A stretch of 64,000 bases of DNA from a virus, in IMG/VR virus record IMGVR_UViG_3300046171_000173, positions 15,594 to 79,593 of that record. One strand, 5' to 3'. How positions within the stretch are numbered: the first letter of the stretch is position 1; every line of letters begins with the position of its first letter. The notes beneath the pieces were generated by a model, which was not told the origin of the DNA, did not search any database, and saw nothing but the letters and a program-made list of their open reading frames with translations. Made by a program: the position numbers and the translations under genes. This document shows positions 12,612-29,367 of the stretch, piece by piece.

Positions 12612-13165
12612 AAAAGATTGCCAGATGTATCAACTATATTATACACAGTATAGCGGAAAGATGCACTTGCTGTAAAGTAGTTGATATCTGTTTCTGTTGC
12701 ATCGAAGTTTAAAGAGGTAATTGATACTGGAAATAAGTTCTTAAATTTAACAATTGCCACATCACGAAGGTTACTGCTCAAGATATGAAGTCCACCATCA
12801 CAAAACTGCTCCTCTAGGTCACGAATACCATCTGTATCGGTTGTCTTTTTAATAAACTGTTGTGGTGTTTCGGGAAATCCAAGTCCTGTCAACCAATTAT
12901 GTACTGACATGTAGTTCTCCATGTTCTCATCAACAAGAAAACGAATGTCCAAATCACCATAAGTTAGTTTCTCACCGGGAACATCTATATTCTTTAAGTA
13001 AGATGGTTGTTGATATGTTCCTAAGTTTATCTCTGGTATTGATGCAGAGTTGCAGAAGAAATCAATCTTTGGAAATTTTGCAAGAGAAAACTTGAACCCA
13101 ACTGGTGAGAGAAAATTACGATTACCAATTTGTCCGGCAAGTGCACCGCGAGATGATGAAGTCAT
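12608..13165 (-). CDS. gp3: Tail completion / sheath stabilizer gp3
   Basis: NFLSPVGFKF, FLVDENMENY...NW. Confidence 0.88.
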   Translation of the reverse strand: MTSSSRGALAGQIGNRNFLSPVGFKFSLAKFPKIDFFCNSASIPEINLGTYQQPSYLKNIDVPGEKLTYGDLDIRFLVDENMENYMSVHNWLTGLGFPETPQQFIKKTTDTDGIRDLEEQFCDGGLHILSSNLRDVAIVKFKNLFPVSITSLNFDATETDINYFTASASFRYTVYNIVDTSGNLL

Positions 13166-13479
13166 TTTTTAGTTTTCTTTTTCATTGAATTAATAAATTT
13201 GCGATAAATTGCTGCTTCTGCAGTTTTACCCATCACCCGTGCTCTCTGCTCCATTGCGATGGCTGCCTGAATCTTGTGAGCATGGCCTCGATTTGATTTT
13301 CTAATTTTCGCAACACTGGATCTTGCTGTTGATTCATCTTTGAATCCAAGTCCATGAATTGTTCCTTTTGGATCTTCATCTGTATATAAGTCTGAATGTT
13401 TTTTAGATTTTGCTGGTTGTCCCTTCTTTCTTGGGATTCTTGGATTAGAAGACTCTAAAAACTGTTGAAGTGTTTTCAT
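13162..13479 (-). CDS. Basic hypothetical protein with capsid-targeting-like N-terminus
   Basis: Starts MKTLQQFLE; Lys/Arg-rich. Confidence 0.7.
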   Translation of the reverse strand: MKTLQQFLESSNPRIPRKKGQPAKSKKHSDLYTDEDPKGTIHGLGFKDESTARSSVAKIRKSNRGHAHKIQAAIAMEQRARVMGKTAEAAIYRKFINSMKKKTKK

Positions 13480-13775
13480 TCACCTCCACCTCCTCCATTG
13501 CCTCCACCACCATTACCACCACCGTTTCCACCACCATTTCCACCGTTTCCGTTACCGCCATTGCCACCATTGCCATTTCCGTTACCATTACCATTTCCGT
13601 TACCATTACCACTATCTGAGCGATTATCTCCACCACGATAATACCTCCCACCAAAACTAGGATAATACTTATATCGTTTTGTTGGAACGCAACTCTTTAG
13701 TTTTGAATCGAATCTGTATCCTTTAGGGCACTTTGCTGATTGTGCCTCATCCAGAAACTGGTCTAGATTTTTCAT
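13476..13775 (-). CDS. Gly/Asn-repeat protein with capsid-targeting-like N-terminus
   Basis: MKNLDQFLDE, CPKGY...CVP, then (GN)n/GGN tail. Confidence 0.7.
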   Translation of the reverse strand: MKNLDQFLDEAQSAKCPKGYRFDSKLKSCVPTKRYKYYPSFGGRYYRGGDNRSDSGNGNGNGNGNGNGNGGNGGNGNGGNGGGNGGGNGGGGNGGGGGE

Positions 13776-15260: not shown

Positions 15261-16688
15261 TTACATTAGGTTTTGAACTTTAACTCTTCTGTAGTAACGG
15301 TTAGCGTTAACAGAAAGTCTACCAAGACCTTGAGTTGTTCCTTCAGCAAATGGGTTAGCAACCATACCATATCTGGTTTTGAAACCAATTTTTGGTTGGA
15401 ATGTATCCTGACCAACTGCTCTAACCATCTGAAGTGGTACATATGGGCAGTAGAATAGTCCTGCATCGTAAGGTGAAGAACCTTTGTATCCTACAACATA
15501 GTACTGATCAGCAGCTAAGTTTGCAGCAAATGGGTCAATGTACACTCTGTACTTACCTTGAAGTATACCAGCAAATGTATTGCCTGTATCATCAACATTA
15601 AGGTTAGCATTAAGTGCTGGAGTGTAATCTAGAACTCCTGCCATTGTGAGTGCAGATGCAACATCAGCAGAGCAGAGGATCATGTTACCCTTTCCACGAC
15701 GAGTTCTTTGTGCTATAGCGTTAGCATCTCTCTCGATTTGGAAGATAAGTCCTTTGAACTTCTCAACTGACCAACGACCGTTGCTATCAGTATCTAAGTC
15801 GAACGCACCGGCAGTTGCCACATTAGTCTGTGCTCCAGACTCAGCAACCTTATAGATTGTTCTAATAACTTCTCTGTTGATTTCAGCAAGTATCTCTGTT
15901 GAAAGGATATTTGCTAGTTCTGCTTCAGCATTCAATCCATGAATTGCCTTAAGATCTTGAGCAAGTTCTAAACTGTACTCTGCCTTTAGTGCTCTGGATT
16001 TCGCTGTAACGGTGACTTTCTCGATTGAGAATGCCATCTCGTTGAACAGTTGACCTGATTCACCTAGTGCTTCAGCGTCTTCTGTATCCATACCACGACC
16101 AACTGGGTATGTTGCTGCACCTTGACCACTTTCAGGGTTTAAGGCAGCAGGGTTTGATGCTTGTACACCACCTGTTGTACCGAAACCAACTGTTGCGCCA
16201 GTTGTAGCACCTTCATTCTGTGTGTAACCAGCAGATATATCTGCGCCACCGTCAGGATGCTGAGATGAGAACGCTGTGTCTGGTTCGTTGAATAGTGCTT
16301 CAGCTCCACTTTGGTTAGTGAATCTGGATCTCATTGCGAAAATAAGTCCTGTTGGGCCGCTCATTGGTTGTACACCAGCTAGGTCATATGCGACCAAGTT
16401 TGGCATAGAACGACGGATAAGACTTATGAGTACTGGGTCGAAACCAGCAACTGGGCCGGCAGCTGTTGCGCCAGCAGAGAAACCAGCAGTTGCACCAGAT
16501 GAACCGGTTGTTACTGTAGGTTGCTCAGATAAGAATTCACGCTCTTCGCGTTGTGTTTGCTCTTGGTTCTCTAAAAGAACTGCTGTGACCATTCTTCTAT
16601 GGTTGTCTTTGATTGGATCTAGTCCATCATAGTCTAGAAGCGGGGCCCACTTTTCTACAAGAGCTTCCTGATTAATAGGGGCTTGCAT
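15261..16688 (-). CDS. gp23: Major capsid protein
   Basis: EKWAPLL, GVQPMSGPTGLIFAMR, ELAQDLKAIHGL, FQPKIGFKTRYG. Confidence 0.99.
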   Translation of the reverse strand: MQAPINQEALVEKWAPLLDYDGLDPIKDNHRRMVTAVLLENQEQTQREEREFLSEQPTVTTGSSGATAGFSAGATAAGPVAGFDPVLISLIRRSMPNLVAYDLAGVQPMSGPTGLIFAMRSRFTNQSGAEALFNEPDTAFSSQHPDGGADISAGYTQNEGATTGATVGFGTTGGVQASNPAALNPESGQGAATYPVGRGMDTEDAEALGESGQLFNEMAFSIEKVTVTAKSRALKAEYSLELAQDLKAIHGLNAEAELANILSTEILAEINREVIRTIYKVAESGAQTNVATAGAFDLDTDSNGRWSVEKFKGLIFQIERDANAIAQRTRRGKGNMILCSADVASALTMAGVLDYTPALNANLNVDDTGNTFAGILQGKYRVYIDPFAANLAADQYYVVGYKGSSPYDAGLFYCPYVPLQMVRAVGQDTFQPKIGFKTRYGMVANPFAEGTTQGLGRLSVNANRYYRRVKVQNLM

Positions 16689-17925: not shown

Positions 17926-18580
17926 TTACAGATTTGCTAAGAAATCTTGGAATAATCCAAGTTTATGTTCATCTAAAACATTTTGATCAACTAAAGTGTT
18001 AATCTTATTTTTTGTTTGTGAAGCAAGTTGTTCACGAAGGATTCCTCCTTCCCAAACCCACTCTTTTCCTTCCATGATTCCAGATACAAAAGCATCAGGG
18101 TGCTGATGGATCAGCAACGATGTCAGCAGCAGTTGCTAACATGAAATCTTCACCAACAACTTTGCATCCAGATGCAGTGTCTTCTTTCAATGATCCGACA
18201 CCACGAGACGAGACACCGAGGGTGACTCCTTCACCAATAAGATTTGATGCAATCTTACCCATTGGTGTTGAAAGTATTTGTGCCTTACCAACAAAGTTTT
18301 TACCTTCTTGACGAAGTGATGTAATCTTATGAGATACTCGATCTAGATTAACTGTTGGGCCATCTGGATGTCCAAGTTCTCCAAGTGCTCTTCCTTTCTG
18401 AACAAAACTTTCGTTATAACGATTTACTTCTCTTGCAAGAGTATTTACAGGGTATAATCTACCGTTACGATTTTTGATATCTCCTTGTAAGAAAACACCT
18501 TCGATATACATTTTTTTATTACCGCCTTTTCCTTCAACGATAAATTTAACCTTTTGGACTTCTTCGGTAATTAGTTTCAT
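17926..18580 (-). CDS. gp21: Prohead protease (one frameshift near 18100)
   Basis: NRNGRLYP, GELGHP, GVSSRGVGS, DIVADPSAP/DAFV. Confidence 0.95.
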
Positions 18581-19063: not shown

Positions 19064-20742
19064 TTATATCTCTGCTTTTTTGGTATCATTTGCTAGTTCT
19101 GCATCTGTTACTGCTGCTTGACCTTCTAGATCATCTTCAACTGGCACATCGCCTAAATCTCCACCTGCAATTGGTTCACCAGTTATTGGGTCAACTTGTG
19201 AAGGATCTGGTAAAATTCCATCCTTGATTTCTTGTTCGATTTGTGCATCAATCTCTTCAATTTCAGTGTCAGATTGACGAAGAACTTTCTTACGAAGATA
19301 CTCTGTTGAATAGTACTTACCAAGATATGGTTCGACAGTTGCAGCAAGACCTAATCTCTCATTCATCATTTCTGATTCTTTAAGTTCTGCAAACTGATTA
19401 TCGTATAAGAAATCATACTGAATATGATCACTCATCTTCTCCCAATCTTCTGGAGTAACAATGTTCTTAAGAATCAATTGAGTTCTCAACATGTCATTAA
19501 ACATGTTACCAAATCTCTTTCTTAATCTTCCAACAAACTTACTAAACTTAAGTTCATCTCTTAATATTTCAGATGATCTTCCTAAGTTAAATCCACCATC
19601 AGATGCGATTCTAGATTCTGGAACACCTAATGCACGATATAGTTTCTTTTGGAAGTATTCAATATCTGTAAGTTCACCTAAGTTTTGTCCACCGGGAAGT
19701 GTTGATATCTCAGTTCCTCTTCCACCTTCTCTTCTTGGCAACCAGAAATCTTCCATCATAGACATGAACTTACGATCATCTCTAACTTCACCAGTTTGTG
19801 CATTATAACTTAACTTATTACGATAGCGACTCATTACCTCTTTAAGGTACTGTTCTGCTTTTACTTTTGGAAGATTACCAACATCAATATAAAATATTCT
19901 TCTTTCTGGTGCTCTTGATAATCTGTAGATAACAAGACTATCTTCAATCATTCTTAATTGATTTAAGTGCCTTGATTGCTTTATGTAAGTATGATAAACA
20001 AGTTCCTTTATTACGATCAAATAAACCGGAGGTTACATAAGTTATTGAATCTTTAGCAATCTTAATGTTCTTTTCACGACCTGATGCAACGGGTGACATA
20101 ACACCTATTGGATAGTTAGGTTTTGGTGTATAAACATAATATTCTTCAATATCTGGATATGCAGATGTATTAACACTCTTAAGATTACTATAATCAACTA
20201 AACCATTTCCGGGTTTTGTATTACTGTCTTTCTTCTCTTGCCTAACGAATTTCATCTTCATCGGGTCAATATATCTTAATTCTTGTATTCCATCTTGAGG
20301 TCTCTTAACATCAATAACCTTCATGTAATATAATCTTCCATCTACATACCAGTTTCTAAAAATCTCATGAGACTTTTTATCAAAGTCCATGATTTCTTTT
20401 AGATGTCTAAATTCTCCTCTAATTCTATCTTTTAAACTATCACTTGCATTTACATTAGATAACTCAATTTCAATTGGAGAATCATATAGATCACTTACAA
20501 TTGCTTCATTTACAACATCTTCAATCGCATTGTCCGCTTCTGGATGCAATGCCATCTCACGATATCTTTTAATAAGATCGTACTCGGTCTTATATACTCC
20601 TTCTATATCTACATACTGTCCATAAAATCCAGACTGTATAAAATAGTCAACCCCGTCCTCATTATTCTGAGGCACAGGGGCGACTACTGAATCGGGCTTT
20701 CTTACCTGAATCATCAATGGAGAAACCGAAAAGTTTAGGCAT
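19064..20742 (-). CDS. gp20: Portal vertex protein (split by indels)
   Basis: MPKLFGFSI start at 20742; WYVDGR, NQLRMIEDSLVIYRLSRAPERRIFYIDVGNLP, EDFWLPRREGGRGTEI. Confidence 0.97.
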
Positions 20743-20745
20743 CGT

Positions 20746-20781
20746 ATAACACTATTTATTTCTATTATACACTATTTATCA
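20746..20781 (-). promoter_or_regulatory. Tandem duplicated late promoters upstream of gp20
   Basis: ATAAATAGTGT occurs twice, 20 nt apart, on the minus strand. Confidence 0.65.
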
Positions 20782-20795
20782 AATAAATCAACTTC

Positions 20796-21383
20796 TTAGT
20801 TGATCGCCTCTCCTCCGGCATTAGCTCCGGTGCCCTTGATTGCTTCCCACCATTGAACTTGGAATTCAACAGTAAACTCTTCAACGCTATCAACTGTCTC
20901 GTAAGATAGGTCAATTGCACTGATATTTGTTGGGAATATATCGTGGAACTTATAGGTTCTAAGTGTAGAACCGTCACGGTCTAATTGGTGAACATATGCA
21001 TCTGGTTGATACAATGCTGGATCTTGTGCTCCAGTTGCATCTTCCATACTATTAATGAAGTCCATCCATTTTTCCATTGCGGAACGAATGGAGAAGTCAA
21101 CATCATTAATAACTGTTACTGTCCATGTATCAAAGGTTCTGTCACCAGCAATCTTAAGTATCCTACCTCTGAAGTTAACTTCAATAGGTGTGATATTTGA
21201 CGCAGGTAATAGAGCAGCCTTAACTAAGAACCTTGATTTTTCTTTTACATCATTCTCGATCGCGATTGGATCGGGGAATGCTAATTCCACCTCAAAGAGA
21301 TTCGGTCTTGCACCGCCACCGGCCATCTTGCTCTTGAAGTCGGTGATCGTTCTAAGTGGTGGTCTGTTAAATTGGGTTGCCAT
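20796..21383 (-). CDS. gp19: Tail tube protein
   Basis: GGARPNLFEV, FRGRILKIAGDRTFDTW. Confidence 0.96.
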   Translation of the reverse strand: MATQFNRPPLRTITDFKSKMAGGGARPNLFEVELAFPDPIAIENDVKEKSRFLVKAALLPASNITPIEVNFRGRILKIAGDRTFDTWTVTVINDVDFSIRSAMEKWMDFINSMEDATGAQDPALYQPDAYVHQLDRDGSTLRTYKFHDIFPTNISAIDLSYETVDSVEEFTVEFQVQWWEAIKGTGANAGGEAIN

Positions 21384-21402
21384 TTTTGTTAATTACCTCT
21401 AG

Positions 21403-23566
21403 TTAAACAGTTCCAATAACTTCATCGAACGAGATGCCAGTTCTTGTGGCAACGAATGTAAGACCAATAAAGTTAATTGACCTTGCAGGTTTAATGAAGA
21501 TGTCTGCGACAAACTCATTACTATCTATGATGGCAGCAGTGTTATTTGTTTCATCACAAACAACTCTGAAATCAAAGATACCTCGTTTAGACTGAACATC
21601 ACGAAGGAATGGTTCAACAATGTTCACAAAGTTCGTTCTTGTGATTTCATCGTTAAACTCAAAGAGTTGGTCTCTTGCAGCAGCGGAAATTGCTTCTTCA
21701 ATGAAGATAAACAATCTACGAACATTGATACGATCAAATGCTGATGCTTTACCGAAACCGGTTTTATCACCGAATAGGATGATTCCTGCTCCGGGTGAAA
21801 AGATCACAGGGTTGATTCTATTACCATATAGAACATCTCTCTGTGTTTGATTAGGTGTATATGCAAGTTTAACTGCATTTAAAATTCCACCTCTCGCTGT
21901 TCCCGCTGGTGAGAACCAAGGGAAGTTGTTGATGTCATTTCTTGCACATGTTCCACCAATATCACCATTTAATGGGATATATCTGAATGTGTCAGAGAAT
22001 CTATCGAACATATACTTGTATCCACTATCGAATACCGCATATGAAGATGATGTAAGTGGTGCATAGAATCCAACCACATTACTTGTCATATCAGCAGCAG
22101 AGTTTAGTGTTCCTGTTCCGACTGCAGAGTCGTTAAGGAATGATCCTCTGTTTGGTGAGATGAATGCTACAACATCTTTTCTTAACTCAGCAATTGAGAT
22201 AAGTTTGTTTGCTAATGCTTGTGCATCTGCTTGTGGGTAGTTTGCAGAACCCATGAGTAAGAAGTCAATATCAAACTCTTCCTTGTTTTCAAACAAGTCA
22301 TATCCTGCAGTAATTCCACCTAAACTTGCACTCATTGCACCTGCTGTCAAGGTAGCAGCACCGTTATAGTTCTCTCCACCTGTAAGAGTCTTTGTTAAAA
22401 CTCCAGATCCAGCGAAAGAAATACCTTGTGCATCTTGATCCCATGCGACATCAGTTTGCTTAGTGAATCCACCAGCTACAAATGCAGTAGTTGTGATTCC
22501 AGATGATGCAAGTGTTGGGCCACCCATACCAAATATATTGGATGAGTTATTGTAAATATACTTTCTCCAGTAGGATGGTGATCCAGCAGAGAACTCAGCA
22601 TCTTTTGCTTTTGAAAGTCCTAAGTGCTTCTCAAGAACTGTACCAGCATTTCCTGTTACTGTTCCTTTGTCATCGATGACTACAACATGAACTTCATCAA
22701 ATCTTGAACTTCTTGCTGTTGCATAAGATGATGTTCCGGGTCTTTCTGCAATTGTATTCCAGTTGATAGTAGAGTTACTTAAAGTAATCTTCTGCTGATC
22801 AAACCAGTCTAAAGGTGTTGCTGCAGTTGTTGTGCTACCACCACCTGTGTTAGCAGACATACCGTAACTAATTACACCAGCACCGAATTTGTAAACTCCA
22901 CCGGGTTGATAATCCTTTGTAGTCTCAATACCTGCATTAGATACATGAGATACAAACTTAACACCGATTGCACTACTGTTTACTTCAGTAATGATTCCTT
23001 TAAAGTAACCATCAAGTAAAGAAGTTGTACCAGCACCGGGTAAAACTGTTCCTGAAGGAACTGCTTGAGTTACACCAGCACCAACTGTTAAGGTTGTTAT
23101 ACCTGCAGTTACTATCTGATCTGCTTTACCGTCAATTATGCAAACTTTAATATCGTTTGCCCAAGAACCGGGGTTTCTTGCTGCGACAACTGTATTTGAT
23201 AAAGCATTGAGATCATAACCTTTGTTATTATAATCTTGTGTACTTAATATTTTTATCTCAGGCGAACCATCGTCAGTTGCATTTGCTAGGTCGCTATCGT
23301 CCGATCTCACAACACTTAAGATACCACCATATGAAAGATATGATGAAGCAGTCAACCAATATTCATAGTGCTTGTCTATGTCTAGTGGTTCACCGAATGT
23401 ATCAATTAAGTCTTGTTCGTTTTCAATCGTAGTAGGTTCATTGACCGGGCCCCTTTTGGAAAGGAGCAACAATACCAGCAGCCTTAGTGGTTGCGGTATC
23501 GACTCTACCAATGGTAAGGTCAACTTCTCTAACAACGAGTCCGGGAGATGCTAAATTTAGAGGCAT
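21403..23566 (-). CDS. gp18: Tail sheath protein (N-terminus frameshifted)
   Basis: MPLNLASPGLVVREVD start at 23566; PWFSPAG, FDRINVRRLF, IKPARSINFI. Confidence 0.97.
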
Positions 23567-23647
23567 CTTGTATTCTCCGTAATGTCCAGAATTAATCTGA
23601 AATTATTTATTAAAACCCATGTTTATAGTGGGGAAACAGTGCATGAA

Positions 23648-23884
23648 CTACCAATCTGGGTATTCCCATTTGTTATTAATCGTCTTTTTAGTCCTTTTAA
23701 CTCTTAGTTTAGTACAATCTTTACATTCGTATGAATATGAGGATAAAGTGGTTCGATTTCTTCTTGTTACATAAAAATCTTCCATAAGAGTCTTAACAAC
23801 TCCGCATGACCTACATTTTCTTTCTGTAAATAATAGATGTTCTAATTCAACTTGATCATCTAAATCCACTAGTAATAATCCCAC
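23648..23884 (-). CDS. Small Zn-ribbon protein (CRSC...CKDC)
   Basis: Two CxxC pairs; conserved position between gp17 and gp18. Confidence 0.65.
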   Translation of the reverse strand: MGLLLVDLDDQVELEHLLFTERKCRSCGVVKTLMEDFYVTRRNRTTLSSYSYECKDCTKLRVKRTKKTINNKWEYPDW

Positions 23885-25517
23885 ATATATGATCGATCAC
23901 CATATTCATCCACCTGCCAAGTATCACCCTGACCATCAGTAAAGGAAGTTTCATCTAAACCATCTTGAATAAATCCGAATGGTGCCATATCTTGTTCAAT
24001 TTGATTTCTTTGTTCTTCATATAATCTCTTTCGTATATCATTATCAGTCATTTCTTTGAAATAATCTTGTGCAACTAACCATGCAAATATAACTAAACAC
24101 ATTGCTAAGTCATCATTACAACCCTCTTCTGCCTCAAAAGAGTTATGTTTTTGTGAAAAAGTAGTCAATTCTGATATGATTTCATAATCCTTCACGAGTA
24201 TTTTATCATCCTCAAGTAAAGTTTTGAGGTTTGAGCATCCTAATTTCTTAACAGCAGCAGTAGTTCTGACACCTAACTGTGTCTTTTTACCGGAAAATCC
24301 TGTTCCTACTACCTGTCCTGCACGACCTCTCATGGATGCCATGAGTAAATTATCATATTCAAGATCATAATGAATGATACTTGCAACCTGATCTCCGATA
24401 TCATTTACCTTCAACTAAAAGAAAAGCATCATTATATCCTTTTGCAACATCATAAATGACGCTAGGAAATAACATTGGTTTTATTTCGTTATTTTTATAT
24501 TTGGCAACTATATTGTATGGAAAATTAGTTATATCTACAACTATAAATGCTGAATAGTCATTGCCCAATCCACGAGCCACATCAACTGTAATTAAATACT
24601 GGTGATTAGGTATAGGTCTTTCATGCACATCTAATCCGGCATTTTTAGTTATTGGGTTTCTCATATACTAAGTTTTTAAGTTTAGCAGGATTAATAAGTG
24701 TATTGACAGATCCTAAGAACTCACATTCAAACTCAACTTTAAATTGTTGCTCTGATGTGTTTGCAATTGTTTGATCTCTCCATTCTTCATCTCTCCCCGG
24801 AACTTCTGACCAATGAACTTCTGTTGGTACATATTCATTTTTACCTCTTTCTGAGTCATGCCACATACGGTAGAAATGATTCATACCTCGTGGTGTCGAG
24901 ACTATTATGACTTTGGTGCTTTGGCCAGAAGAAATAGTAGGATAAACAGAGGCAAAGAAGTCGTCAGCAATGTGATTCGGGATAAAAGCGAACTCGTCGA
25001 GAAAGATGACATTATAGGAACCGCCTCGGACAGCAGATGAAGAAGTAGAGTTAGCTGATATTTTGGATCCATTTTCTAATTCCAGAGAACCTTTATTCCA
25101 TGCAATAATACCCTGTTGCATCCATTTTGGCAAGTTTTCGTATGCCAACTGTAATCTGCCTAATAAATCACGGGCAGTTGATGCTTTGTTTGCAAGTATT
25201 GCAATGTTTACATTATCATTAAAAACAGCATAATGTAATAAGTATGATACACAAGTCGTTGACTTTCCAGTCTGACGAGGCATTTTACAGATATTGAATC
25301 TACTCTCGTGGAAATTTCTAATTAATTTCTCTTGGAAATCATAGAGACTAAAAGGAACTAGTCCACTATCAAGAGAAACTATCTTAATATATTTTCTTGC
25401 AAAATAAACTGGATCTTCCTTACATCGCACAAACTCAAGTATTTGATCTTGAGTAAAGTTGATTGCAGTGTTTGCTTTTTTTAGATTCGGATTTCCAAGG
25501 TAAACATTATCAGACAT
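23869..25517 (-). CDS. gp17: Terminase large subunit (split into 3 ORFs)
   Basis: PRQTGKST, FLDEFAF, STPRG, DVARG, DDLAM. Confidence 0.97.
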
Positions 25518-25524
25518 AATTTAA

Positions 25525-27884
25525 TCAGCAGTTCCAGCGTCTTCGTGCTTGTCTTAATCGACTATCCGGATCTTTTGCTGCTTTTGGAAACTTTTTCATT
25601 TGCCCTGCACTTCGTGCACAGTAACTTTTTCTTCTATTCGATGCTTTAGAACCTTTCTTTAATTTGGAAGGTTCTGTAGTTACAGCAGTCTTTAATTTTG
25701 ATCCGGGATTTTTACGACGATATGCTTCGACACCTTTTTGTGTCATTCCAGCACCTGATTTTGTGGGTCTCTTGTGTCCAGACTTGACACTCATACCCTT
25801 CATATCGTCTTCAGATAACTTTTTTACTTCGTCCTTACCCTCATAACCTATTTCATCTCTCCAGTTTACCATAGATTCACCGACTTTTTTCTTCACACAG
25901 TTTGGATATCTCTTACCAAACATAGTTTTCATACCTTTCTTCTCATAACCTTTCCAGCACTTTTCATCTAGATTCTCTTCCTTCATACCTTTTTTCTTTT
26001 TCTTAGCAACCATTAAGTCCATGATTCTCTGTTTCTTAGAGATTGCAATTGCTGCCTGTTGTGCAGGATTCATTGCTTCACTTGTGACACCTGCTTTTGA
26101 TCTTTCTTTTTCAGAGATGCTCTTAATGATCATCTTTAACTTTGCTCTCTTACCATATGGATTTGGTTTTTTATTATCAAATCCTGCCATTGCACCTTTT
26201 GGTTTACCATCTCCTTTAAAGATACCGTATGATGCACCTTCAGCAGTTGTAGTGGTATGATCTTCATCAGGAGTGTTTGTTGCAAGATTTTTTGCTTTTT
26301 GTTTTTTAGAGATCTTTGGGCCACCTATCGGATCGCCATACTCATCTCTTTTCATTTCACCTAAATCAGTTCTCCAATCAGAAGGATTAAGTGGTTCTGG
26401 TTTGATGATATCTACTGCTTCAACTTCAGTAAACTTGATATCGTCTTTCTTCCAATCTTGAACTAACAATTCACTCTCAATCACACTGTTTTCTTTCATG
26501 TGATCTGCTGCCTTGTATAAGGGTTTACCAGTCTTCACACTCTTTTTACCTGCCTTATAATCCTGATATGCTTTGGTATTTGCTTTTTTATCAGCGTTAG
26601 TTACAGTCATTGGCATTTCTAATCCCTCTGACTTATTACCCCAGTTTGCAGCACCTACTTTACGACACTTAACTAATGCACCTGATGCATATGCACTTGG
26701 CCATACAGAGTATCTTGACTTAACTTTATGATAGCAAGCATCTTTAGATCCACTACCTTTACCTTTCTTATCTTTTACTTCACTAATAATATCATATATT
26801 GTTCCTGTTTCTGAACGATACTTTTCTTTTGGTTCATTTGGTATTACATACTCAACACTAAGTTCGTCTCCAACTTCTACATTGTTCTCTGCAAACCATC
26901 CACGATTTACTTCGATTGCTAATTCAATCGCACCTTCTGAATATACTGGACTGGATTATTTGGTTCTAATTCTTTAATACTTTCGATAACACCATCTTCT
27001 CTGATAAATGCAATATCAAGAGGAATCTTAGTTTCAGTCATATGAAAAGACTGTTGTGCAATATTATCAAATACAAAAAGCATACCGCCATCTGTATCTA
27101 AACTTTCACGGAACATTAATCCTTGTTTGAAATCTAAAGAACTCTTGTGGAAGTTCTAATCTCAAAGGTAATGTTGTAAATTCTTCTTTCATTTTTTTCT
27201 TTGGATCAGTTGATACCATTGTTGGTGCTGCTGCACCTGATTTTTGTGGTTGACCGGGATCTGCTGCTCTTTTTCTTCTTGCAGCACTATCTCTTTCCTT
27301 ATCACTCATAGATGATCTCTTTGATGAAGAGGTACATTTAGGAGTTGTTTTTTGACCGGGTTGGCGAGCACAAGGGCTTACCATCATATTTACCACCAAC
27401 TTGAACCCAACCTTTTACTTTGCGTCCAGACTTAGTAGTTCCACTTGATTTACCAAACCAAGCACGAAGACCTTCTTCGTTAACTTCTTTACTATCAAGA
27501 TAATCTGCAGCAGTATCTAAGTAATCAGATGCCTTAGTTATCTTTGATTGAACCCATGCCTTGAAATTGTCTTTCTTGCGTGAATGTTTGACAATCCTCT
27601 TAGATGCTCTACCTGCAGTCTTCAATTGATTACGAATCATTTCTGGTTCATGATCACCATGCTTATCTTCATTCATTGCTTTTTCTAAATCATCTGCTTG
27701 TTTTGCATGTGTTTTAGAACCACTCTTTAGTTTTTTAACCAAATGTTTTATAAATGGTTTATCTTTTTTATCTAAAGTTTCTTTCATAAGGAAACCATCA
27801 TCACGAACGAATAGATCCTTCGGGAATTGGTTTACACTTCTGATCAGTGTTGCAATAGTAATATCCTTTTTTACAGGATTTCAT
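25525..27884 (-). CDS. Large modular basic protein (~785 aa after correcting ~4 indels) with a DUF192-like domain and a C-terminal DUF6321-like module
   Basis: Starts MKSCKKGYYYC at 27884 (TAATG overlap with gp16). Fragments 27338-27787, 27106-27399 and 26919-27116 join by single-base shifts, and the frame is open from ~26940 to 25525. Motifs GLMFRESL..GMLF and RRKSYCARS..RRRWNC. Confidence 0.7.
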
Positions 27885-28321
27885 TATTCAGTAGTTTCTG
27901 AGTCATTATTATTTAGAATACCTTGTTTTAGTAATTTTGACAACTCGCTTGTAGATCCAACAAATAAGGCATTATTCGTGACATTATTTTGTGTTTTAGT
28001 ACCCTCTTCATCTATATCTTTCATCTTCTTCTGAAGATCCATCAACTTATCTGTACTATCTGCAACTGATTTAATTAACTGTCCTGCAACTTCATATGCT
28101 CTTGGACTTGCACTTTCACCAGCAACTTCCATAATACCATTGATTGCTTCTTGTCCCTTTTCAATTAGAGAATATAATTGACCTCTTGTATACTTATAAT
28201 CTTTCTCAACATCATTCTTTTTTAAAGCAACATTAGGTAAATCAGGTTTTGATTCATCTTTTTTTATAATCGATGTTTCAACATTTAAAGATTTTTCAAT
28301 ATCACCAAAATTAGTGTTCAT
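27884..28321 (-). CDS. gp16: Terminase small subunit
   Basis: SPRAYEVAGQLIK, NALFVGSTSEL. Confidence 0.92.
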   Translation of the reverse strand: MNTNFGDIEKSLNVETSIIKKDESKPDLPNVALKKNDVEKDYKYTRGQLYSLIEKGQEAINGIMEVAGESASPRAYEVAGQLIKSVADSTDKLMDLQKKMKDIDEEGTKTQNNVTNNALFVGSTSELSKLLKQGILNNNDSETTE

Positions 28322-29367
28322 TATGAGTCTGTCCTTGTTGCAGGATTGAATTGTAATGAATCAGTAAAGATACTGGAAGATTCACTAAATCCAAAATCGT
28401 CACCAATATCTATAAGATTATCATCTGCTGTAGTTAATTTATTAACCTTTGCCTGTTCAAGATGCTCGACTTTAAGTGTTCTATCAAATCCTCTTTTAAC
28501 GACCAAAGTAGGTTGCATCAGGTTTTTCTTTCACCTGCATTACCTCACTATCAATTACAATACGATCTCCAACAGAGAAGTTGGATGTATCATTTACTGT
28601 TATTCTAACTGCTGTTGCTGAGATGTTAAATGTTAGAACTTCTGTATTCGCACCATCATAATCTTTAACTGCTTTTGGTGTAGCAACATAACGAAGTTCT
28701 CTTCTCTTATTCTCACGATCCATGTTAGTGTGATAATCCAACTGAACCTTCTTAATAAGTCCTTCAGGAGTATCAGCAACAGGGCCGAATAGATAAGTTT
28801 TAGCAGTAAAACTGAGTGTGTATATTAATGCTCTTCTTGTTGCAAAATCTCCTTCGTAATCATCTTGAATGATATATTATCTAATACAACACTAATATCT
28901 CTTTTCTCTCCAATGACACTTACTAAGTCTACAGTTAAATTAAAAGATGGTTGAAAGAATGGTAGTATTTGTTCAACTATCTGAAGTCCATCATCGTTTA
29001 GTTTAACTAAGACATTTAATTCAAAACCAATATTATATGGAACTGGCATGAAAACTTTTCTTAAATTTGTTCCATCAGATGCTTTGAATGTTTGTGTAAT
29101 TGATGATTTTCTTGTTGCATCATAAGCAATGTTTGTCATCTCAAAAGACATTCTAGGTAATGTAATTTGAGTTGCACGATTTAAATCAGGTTGTTGTTCA
29201 ATTCTTGCTAAAAACTTTTGCATTGGGCCGTATGCCAAAGCAACTTTCATATCGCTAATTGATTTACCAGTATTATCCTTATGACGTATATGAATATCAT
29301 TGAACAATGTTCCAAACGATATAACCGTCTTTCTAAGTATTTCGTGATAAAAATAAGTGCCTAACAT
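28321..29367 (-). CDS. gp15: Proximal tail sheath stabilizer (split by indels)
   Basis: YFYHEILRKTVISFGTLFNDI, LPRMSFE, QIVEQILPFFQP. Confidence 0.93.

Follow-up and report, generated by a model that had tools for sequence, protein, structure and literature searches.

A candidate capsid-cargo polyprotein of T4-like cyanophages, built from exchangeable modules that follow a hydrophobic-x-Glu motif

The DNA considered here is a 64,000-nucleotide (nt) window, positions 15,594 to 79,593 of IMG/VR record IMGVR_UViG_3300046171_000173, and is part of a 79.6-kb contig from a T4-like cyanophage whose morphogenesis genes lie on the minus strand. Between gp16 and gp17, the small and large terminase subunit genes, positions 25525-27884 of the minus strand hold five open stretches in three reading frames. 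These stretches are the fragments of one late gene of ~785 residues, a member of the cyanophage family T4-GC119 (phrog_727). Judged from its sequence and from the presence of relatives in virions, its product is, on balance, probably a capsid cargo that the prohead protease gp21 cuts into a set of mostly basic peptides. By analogy, the polyprotein would correspond to the internal proteins of T4, but joined into one chain and assembled from cassettes. In the proposed pathway, the polyprotein would be built into the prohead, and gp21, a member of Peptidase_S77, would cut after the junction Glu residues to release roughly a dozen peptides of 22-134 residues. The basic peptides would then remain associated with the DNA in the head as internal proteins and may accompany it into the host.

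A Single Gene Interrupted by Assembly Errors

As read, the open stretches on the minus strand run over 27884..27804, 27787..27338, 27399..27106, 27116..26919 and 26949..25525. They resolve into five pieces separated by four frameshifts, listed below; a slash follows the Glu of a junction motif.

27804..27884, minus strand: piece 1, the start codon and the CKKGYYYC..CKP module; 27 residues up to frameshift 1
27374..27810, minus strand: piece 2, LRDDGFLMKE/TLDKKDKPF.., the helical WVQSKITKA module and VNE/EGLRAWFGKS.., ending at GKP; matches phrog_727 at positions 39-143
27147..27375, minus strand: piece 3, the basic two-Cys module PCARQPGQK..PKC, ending KKMKE/EFTTLPL; matches phrog_727 at positions 141-202 and phrog_3477
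26950..27146, minus strand: piece 4, the DUF192 core; Pfam PF02643, E 1.4e-16, with profile matches to PDB entries 3pjy and 3m7a
25525..26949, minus strand: piece 5, 474 residues and the stop codon; the DUF192 tail, DACYHKVK..VKCRK, variable modules (VTNADKK, LLVQDWKK, KRDEYGDP, GASYGI..KLKMII and NPAQQAAIAI), KCWKGY..NCVKK and a C-terminal DUF6321 ending RRRWNC
27808..27810 (about 27808): frameshift 1, one extra base in the window; one letter is left out in contigs of runs X1, X3, X5 and X6
27372..27376 (about 27374): frameshift 2, one extra base in the window; public contigs have one base fewer
27144..27147 (about 27146): frameshift 3, one extra base in the window; one X5 contig is identical over 27059-27211 save for one gap
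26947..26954 (about 26950): frameshift 4, one base missing from the window; one letter is inserted in all four runs

The frameshifts were checked by aligning to the window the contigs of four seawater or viral metagenome runs, which come from four different studies. At each of the four frameshift sites, and at two sites in gp17, these public contigs depart from the window sequence by a single base, and some of the contig pieces are otherwise identical to it. Because contigs of four studies differ by one base per site, the breaks are assembly or sequencing errors and not biology. The five pieces are collinear with intact single-open reading frame (ORF) relatives in tblastn searches, and a single intact ORF of 548-1041 residues is present in all 53 complete related viral loci. 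The closest homolog (P0001) has 789 residues, 89% identity and the same module order; SSM2_109 of phage S-SM2 (708 residues) and gp123 of phage Bellamy (618 residues), both homologous by tblastn, are also intact single ORFs. An earlier sequence-only reading of this DNA had joined the five fragments into one frame of ~785 residues. This view holds: the metagenome contigs correct every frameshift, and both they and the relatives show one ORF rather than several independent genes.

The idea of several separate small genes, or of a pseudogene in decay, which the window at face value would suggest with four frameshifts outside any long homopolymer, is effectively refuted, since the frameshifts are missing from near-identical contigs of the four studies and from four related loci, every complete relative has one ORF, and gp15, gp17, gp20 and gp21, all of them essential, carry breaks of this kind as well.

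Uncompensated one-base indels occur about every few hundred bases in 20000-29000 (for example at 28867, 28512, 24657, 24410 and 23445), in 17926-18580 and in 19064-20717. Such indels split gp15, gp17, gp20 and gp21, and the public contigs mend the two in gp17. Their frequency makes ORF-level annotation of the contig unreliable.

Modules of the Restored Protein

Once restored, the protein is rich in lysine and has a net charge of +64 and an isoelectric point (pI) of 9.7. From the N-terminus, its modules are CKKGYYYC..CKP; the helical WVQSKITKA module; EGLRAWFGKS..GWVQVGG..PCARQPGQK..PKC; DUF192; KDKKGKGSG-DACYHKVKSRYSVWPSAYASGALVKCRK; the variable modules; KCWKGY..NCVKK; and DUF6321. Every module listed in the sequence-only reading is present, and both named domains score above their Pfam gathering thresholds. 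Piece 4 matches DUF192 (PF02643, E 1.4e-16) with 60.8 bits against a cutoff of 27, and the intact homologs reach 85-99 bits; DUF6321 (PF19846, E 3.8e-11) scores 43.9 bits against a cutoff of 28.5. The predicted cleavage products are mostly basic, with pI values of 9-11.6, and the DUF192 domain is acidic. The modules are connected by short linkers whose last residues are hydrophobic-x-Glu. Two conserved cysteines are found in each of four modules; they are invariant in three and at least 90% conserved in the fourth.

The KDKKGKGSG-DACYHKVKSRYSVWPSAYASGALVKCRK module is nearly invariant across 54 aligned sequences. The stretch of about 40 residues from DACYHKVK to NWGN (26650-26790) is near-invariant in 54 relatives that are otherwise 41-92% identical. 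In the full-length context, its AlphaFold confidence is very low despite this invariance.

Searches for function returned little. Pfam and PHROG scans of all pieces gave only DUF192, DUF6321 and PHROGs of unknown function, with no homology to IPI, IPII, IPIII or Alt. A profile search of the protein against the PDB gave two DUF192 structures of unknown function (3pjy and 3m7a) and nothing else. Modelled alone with AlphaFold, the DUF6321 module adopts a confident small helical fold, with a predicted local distance difference test score (pLDDT) of 77.9. The only fold matches of this model are other DUF6321 viral proteins; against solved structures, Foldseek gave no PDB match and the best VIA-align Z score was 4.3, which is within noise, so that no function can be drawn from it. 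For the DACYHKVK module, the ESM Atlas offered weak leads only (score at most 0.87), namely small viral hypothetical proteins and one cluster with DUF5872 on 13% of its members. A literature search on DUF192 and DUF6321 found nothing relevant.

A Hydrophobic-x-Glu Motif at Module Junctions

The motif was scored as [LIVMFTY]-x-Glu at a fixed offset before the module, for ten module types in 472 distinct upstream contexts. Breakpoints taken from the raw ends of BLAST high-scoring segment pairs were too noisy and were replaced by this fixed-offset test and by a test of cassette indels. The motif precedes the module in 404 of the 472 contexts (86%), as compared to 11% at random positions, which bears out the earlier observation that most modules begin right after hydrophobic-X-Glu. 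The P3 residue is mostly L, V, I or M, and P1' is A, K, E or G. The same module, when it stands behind differing upstream modules, is still preceded by the motif. Relative to composition-matched shuffles, the motif is enriched 1.8-fold and control motifs 1.06-1.5-fold.

Large cassette indels between relatives show the same boundary. Glu is found at both ends of 14% of them versus 0.9% in the null, Glu with a hydrophobic P3 at both ends of 8.5% versus 0.08%, and both ends lie at most 2 residues from a motif in 18% versus 1.7%. Hydrophobic-x-Asp bounds far fewer cassettes (3%, still more than its null of 0.3%), and hydrophobic-x-Lys and hydrophobic-x-Gln are not enriched at cassette ends. Within variable linkers, the junction residues E138, E235, E369 and E673 are at least 90% conserved. 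That the Glu is kept while the neighboring residues and codons vary (MNE, VNE, LDE, MTE, TSE, LGE, ISE) argues for selection at the protein level.

Module Exchange in the Cyanophage Family

Pieces 2, 3 and 5 match the phrog_727 profile at positions 39-143, 141-202 and 258-337, respectively, in collinear order. The family comprises 19,381 clusters at 50% identity (counted as representatives, with E up to 0.001). Among isolated phages, it is almost confined to T4-like cyanophages; in Pelagibacter podophages, DUF6321 alone occurs, and in HTVC010P, the only record examined, it is a stand-alone gene of 93 residues.

Cyanophage relatives differ in which modules they carry and in what order. The polyproteins of S-SM2 and Bellamy begin with an SNPRIPRK domain and carry CKxGYYYC later, and S-CREM2 places KCWPGY ahead of DACYHKVK. 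Close relatives of the window's protein differ by gain or loss of cassettes. One such cassette, 54 residues bounded by TAE/ and TSE/ (GASYGI..KAGVTSE; 162 nt in frame, 26084-26245), is missing from contigs of three independent metagenomes. This skip indicates that the presence or absence of the module is polymorphic in natural populations of the phage lineage. As comparison of relatives and of metagenome contigs shows, the modules are exchanged and reordered between phages and vary even within natural populations, in agreement with the exchange that the sequence-only reading had envisaged.

Further skips of 72-682 nt occur within the polyprotein gene in metagenome contigs. In some distant relatives, these modules are fused with further elements, namely a Zeta_toxin/AAA_33 kinase domain plus an HExxH stretch in P0252 and hydrophobic, membrane-like segments in P0188 and P0260; P0169 is also among these distant members.

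Protease, Targeting-Like Leaders and Virion Detection

The protease proposed to process the polyprotein and two stand-alone genes for modules of the family are encoded in the window.

17926..18580, minus strand: gp21, prohead protease (Peptidase_S77), split by a frameshift in the assembly; PF03420, E 1.9e-30, at 18095-18580
13162..13479, minus strand: stand-alone module gene MKTLQQFLE/SSNPRIPRK..; the S-SM2 and Bellamy polyproteins begin with this domain, which here stands behind a leader resembling the T4 capsid-targeting sequence (CTS)
13476..13775, minus strand: stand-alone module gene MKNLDQFLDE/AQSAKCPKGY..C.. with a Gly/Asn tail; equals the CKxGYYYC + GNGNG module of the S-SM2 polyprotein, with a CTS-like leader

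In T4, gp21 cuts head proteins after L/I-X-E (PMC9026906), and the internal proteins enter the prohead by means of a 10-residue leader, MKTYQEFIAE, which gp21 removes (PMC8442874). The phage in the window also encodes a T4-type scaffold, and its gp23 has FLSE/Q at the position expected for the maturation cut; a literature search for cleavage data on cyanophage gp23 found none. On the 79.6-kb contig, the pattern MK[TN][LF]xxF[LI]x(0,1)E, which resembles the T4 leader, opens three ORFs, against a chance expectation of ~0.04 matches among the 817 Met starts tested. Two of them are the stand-alone module genes listed above. The small homologs of the SNPRIPRK domain (n=109) divide as follows: 30 have a CTS-like leader, 14 have another short leader ending in the motif, and 32 are internal and follow the motif, with 28 starting bare and 5 internal without it. 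The motif-bounded modules behave as exchangeable cassettes: they are found fused in varied orders, and also singly, each in a gene of its own whose capsid-targeting-type leader has the motif at its end.

The third leader-bearing ORF, MKTFKEFIHE, lies at contig position ~8495 on the minus strand, outside the window. The MKTLQQFLE, MKNLDQFLDE and MKTFKEFIHE ORFs are candidate internal head proteins of the cyanophage.

Family members have been detected in virions. Purified S-SM1 virions yielded 13 peptide counts for the member SSM1_115 (T4-GC119; PMC3037559, Table S8), and CsCl-purified S-CREM2 virions yielded 7 peptides of ORF160, a 297-residue protein with three of the modules (PMC10665884). 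The S-SCSM1 homolog may be a further case: it is labeled 'Virion protein' in UniProt, and a virion proteome of that phage is published.

Weighing the Cargo Proposal against Alternatives

Several observations weigh against cleavage or against a place in the head. Syn9 carries the gene, yet no peptides were detected in its virions (PMC3037559, Table S8). Published virion proteomes give peptide counts only and no cleavage products, and detection of homologs in virions does not place the protein in the head. The polyprotein starts MKSCKKGYYYC and lacks a capsid-targeting leader that would account for its entry into the prohead. At P3, V, M, F or T is frequent, in departure from the strict L/I of T4. 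The spacing controls hydrophobic-x-x-Glu and Glu-x-hydrophobic are enriched 1.5- and 1.3-fold, respectively, and linkers rich in Lys and Glu make x-x-E commoner by background alone. AlphaFold models the full-length protein poorly (mean pLDDT 47.5, predicted template-modelling score 0.22), with islands of moderate confidence at the modules, and motif sites do not fall preferentially in the low-confidence blocks of the model: 17 of 22 lie below pLDDT 60, as compared to 71% of all blocks.

Part of this evidence would fit a multi-domain virion protein that is left uncleaved or is trimmed only at its ends, with modules joined by flexible Lys/Glu-rich linkers. The hydrophobic-x-Glu motif would then reflect a linker or helix-capping preference, or recombination at linker codons, and not a protease site. 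The virion data, which carry no size information, the missing N-terminal leader, the mild enrichment of the other spacing controls and the broader P3 are all compatible with such a protein. However, the Glu is conserved amid varying linker residues and codons, the CTS-type leaders of stand-alone copies end in the same motif, and cassette ends show no enrichment of the Lys or Gln versions of the motif and only 3% of the Asp version (null 0.3%). We therefore regard an uncleaved protein as unlikely, although it is the alternative to be taken most seriously.

A second alternative accepts cleavage by gp21 and differs in the fate of the products. The protein would act as an assembly helper of the prohead core, cut like T4 gp22, gp67 and gp68, with most fragments leaving before DNA packaging, and would serve assembly or size control. 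In T4, the core proteins are indeed broken up at this motif into numerous fragments, most of which are expelled (PMC9026906), and the cyanophage gene lies within the morphogenesis and packaging cluster. Homolog peptides, however, are present in mature CsCl-purified virions of two phages, and the extreme variability in gene length (276-2985 nt) and module content is unlike that of a size-determining scaffold. The products are also strongly basic, whereas the window's gp22 scaffold is acidic and rich in Glu and Asp. A helper role is improbable on these grounds.

Less probable still is a polyvalent effector in the sense of Iyer et al. (2017), which would be delivered with the DNA and whose processing, if any, would fall to a protease embedded in the chain or supplied by the host and not to gp21. 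Shuffled multi-domain architectures would suit such an effector, as would P0252, in which these modules are fused with a kinase domain and an HExxH region. However, the Pfam scan finds no peptidase or enzyme domain in the window's protein, the junction motif fits the specificity of the S77 protease family, and the survey makes no mention of cyanophages or DUF192 and reports a paucity of such proteins in cyanobacteria (PMC5512222).

The gp21-processed cargo is the reading that we favor on balance. The 'string of beads' put forward in the sequence-only reading is thus partly supported, by the single gene, the shuffled modules, the junction motif, the Peptidase_S77 enzyme, the homologs in virions and the leaders on stand-alone copies; the cleavage, the place inside the head, the ejection with the DNA and the DNA-binding or anti-defense activity are predictions. 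A broader version is more tentative, and we offer it as a conjecture that may well prove wrong. In it, the prohead protease would act as the decoder of a combinatorial cargo: a hypervariable gene between the terminase genes would encode Glu-bounded mini-protein cassettes, including the invariant two-Cys basic modules, which would be released in the capsid and injected with the DNA as a DNA-coating, anti-defense or host-takeover cocktail, with cassettes moving freely between the fused form and leader-bearing single genes.

Relation to Known Systems

The direct counterpart of the gene is T4-GC119, or PHROG 727, annotated 'hypothetical' or 'structural protein' (SSM1_115, SSM2_109 and Bellamy gp123). 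Homology is direct, the position next to gp17 and the modules are the same, and nothing essential differs. Publications present the family as a variable hypothetical protein and offer no explanation of it; in one of them it is listed within a mobile cassette (PMC3037559). Its existence and its presence in virions are thus already published, only as an unexplained hypothetical or structural protein; in the literature, no proposal of processing, a cargo role or protease-defined cassettes for it was found. New here are the contig evidence that the fragmentation is an artefact, the population-level polymorphism of cassettes and a second independent virion proteome match.

With T4 IPI, IPII, IPIII and Alt, the proposed system shares the S77 protease family and a hydrophobic-x-Glu motif, which would be the cut site, and its products would likewise be small basic head-internal proteins. 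The stand-alone modules also share MKTYQEFIAE-like leaders (MKTLQQFLE, MKNLDQFLDE and MKTFKEFIHE). In contrast to the T4 proteins, the cyanophage chain fuses many modules, lacks a leader and any sequence similarity to them, and has modules with paired cysteines. Inner-body or ejection proteins of phiKZ, 201phi2-1 and SPN3US undergo several cuts by a diverged gp21 homolog (S/A-X-E), after which their fragments remain with the DNA (PMC9026906). The likeness lies in the proposed multiple post-Glu cuts of head cargo; those proteins belong to another phage group, are large and unrelated, have a different P3 and do not consist of shuffled mini-modules.

Polyvalent proteins, as described in their survey (PMC5512222), likewise combine many mobile domains in one polypeptide and are predicted to be packaged and delivered. 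The cyanophage modules differ in being tiny, mostly non-enzymatic and basic, and their processing is proposed to occur in trans by the head protease; the hallmark polyvalent domains (such as ARTs, MuF and ArdC-N) were not found in the window's protein by Pfam scan. The T4 core proteins gp22, gp67 and gp68 are also cut at many L/I-X-E sites, but they are an acidic, mostly expelled scaffold, as compared to a basic, hypervariable protein with homologs in mature virions.

Nearly every sequenced T4-like cyanophage carries a member of the family, and these phages rank among the most abundant viruses of the ocean, yet the family is labeled only 'hypothetical' or 'structural'. If the cargo proposal is correct, the missing internal-protein system of cyanomyoviruses would be identified, and tailed phages would offer a natural example of polyprotein-style cargo delivery. 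A simple sequence rule, hydrophobic-x-Glu bounds, would then parse thousands of unexplained phage proteins into functional units. For the window itself, the practical outcome is that the broken-up gene is an artefact of assembly.

Genomic Neighborhood

The polyprotein gene is closely flanked by both terminase genes.

27884..28321, minus strand: gp16, terminase small subunit, directly upstream; Pfam DNA_Packaging; phrog_445, E 1.5e-54
23869..25517, minus strand: gp17, terminase large subunit, with two one-base errors (24657 and 24410)

The ATG of the polyprotein overlaps the stop codon of gp16 (TAATG), and gp17 starts 7 nt past the polyprotein stop. This arrangement is widely kept: gp17 starts 7-19 nt downstream in 50 of the 53 loci, and in the 37 loci that show gp16, this gene ends 0-20 nt upstream in 28 and lies 1.8-4 kb away in the other 9. 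In S-SM1, a further gene, SSM1_114 (T4-GC403; positions 1681-2217 of locus L082), stands between gp16 and the polyprotein; its product, whose role is unknown, is abundant in virions (60 peptide counts). The equivalent position in the window has no counterpart of it. A late-promoter-like sequence, CTAAATA, is located at 27916, inside the end of gp16 and ~30 nt upstream of the polyprotein start codon.

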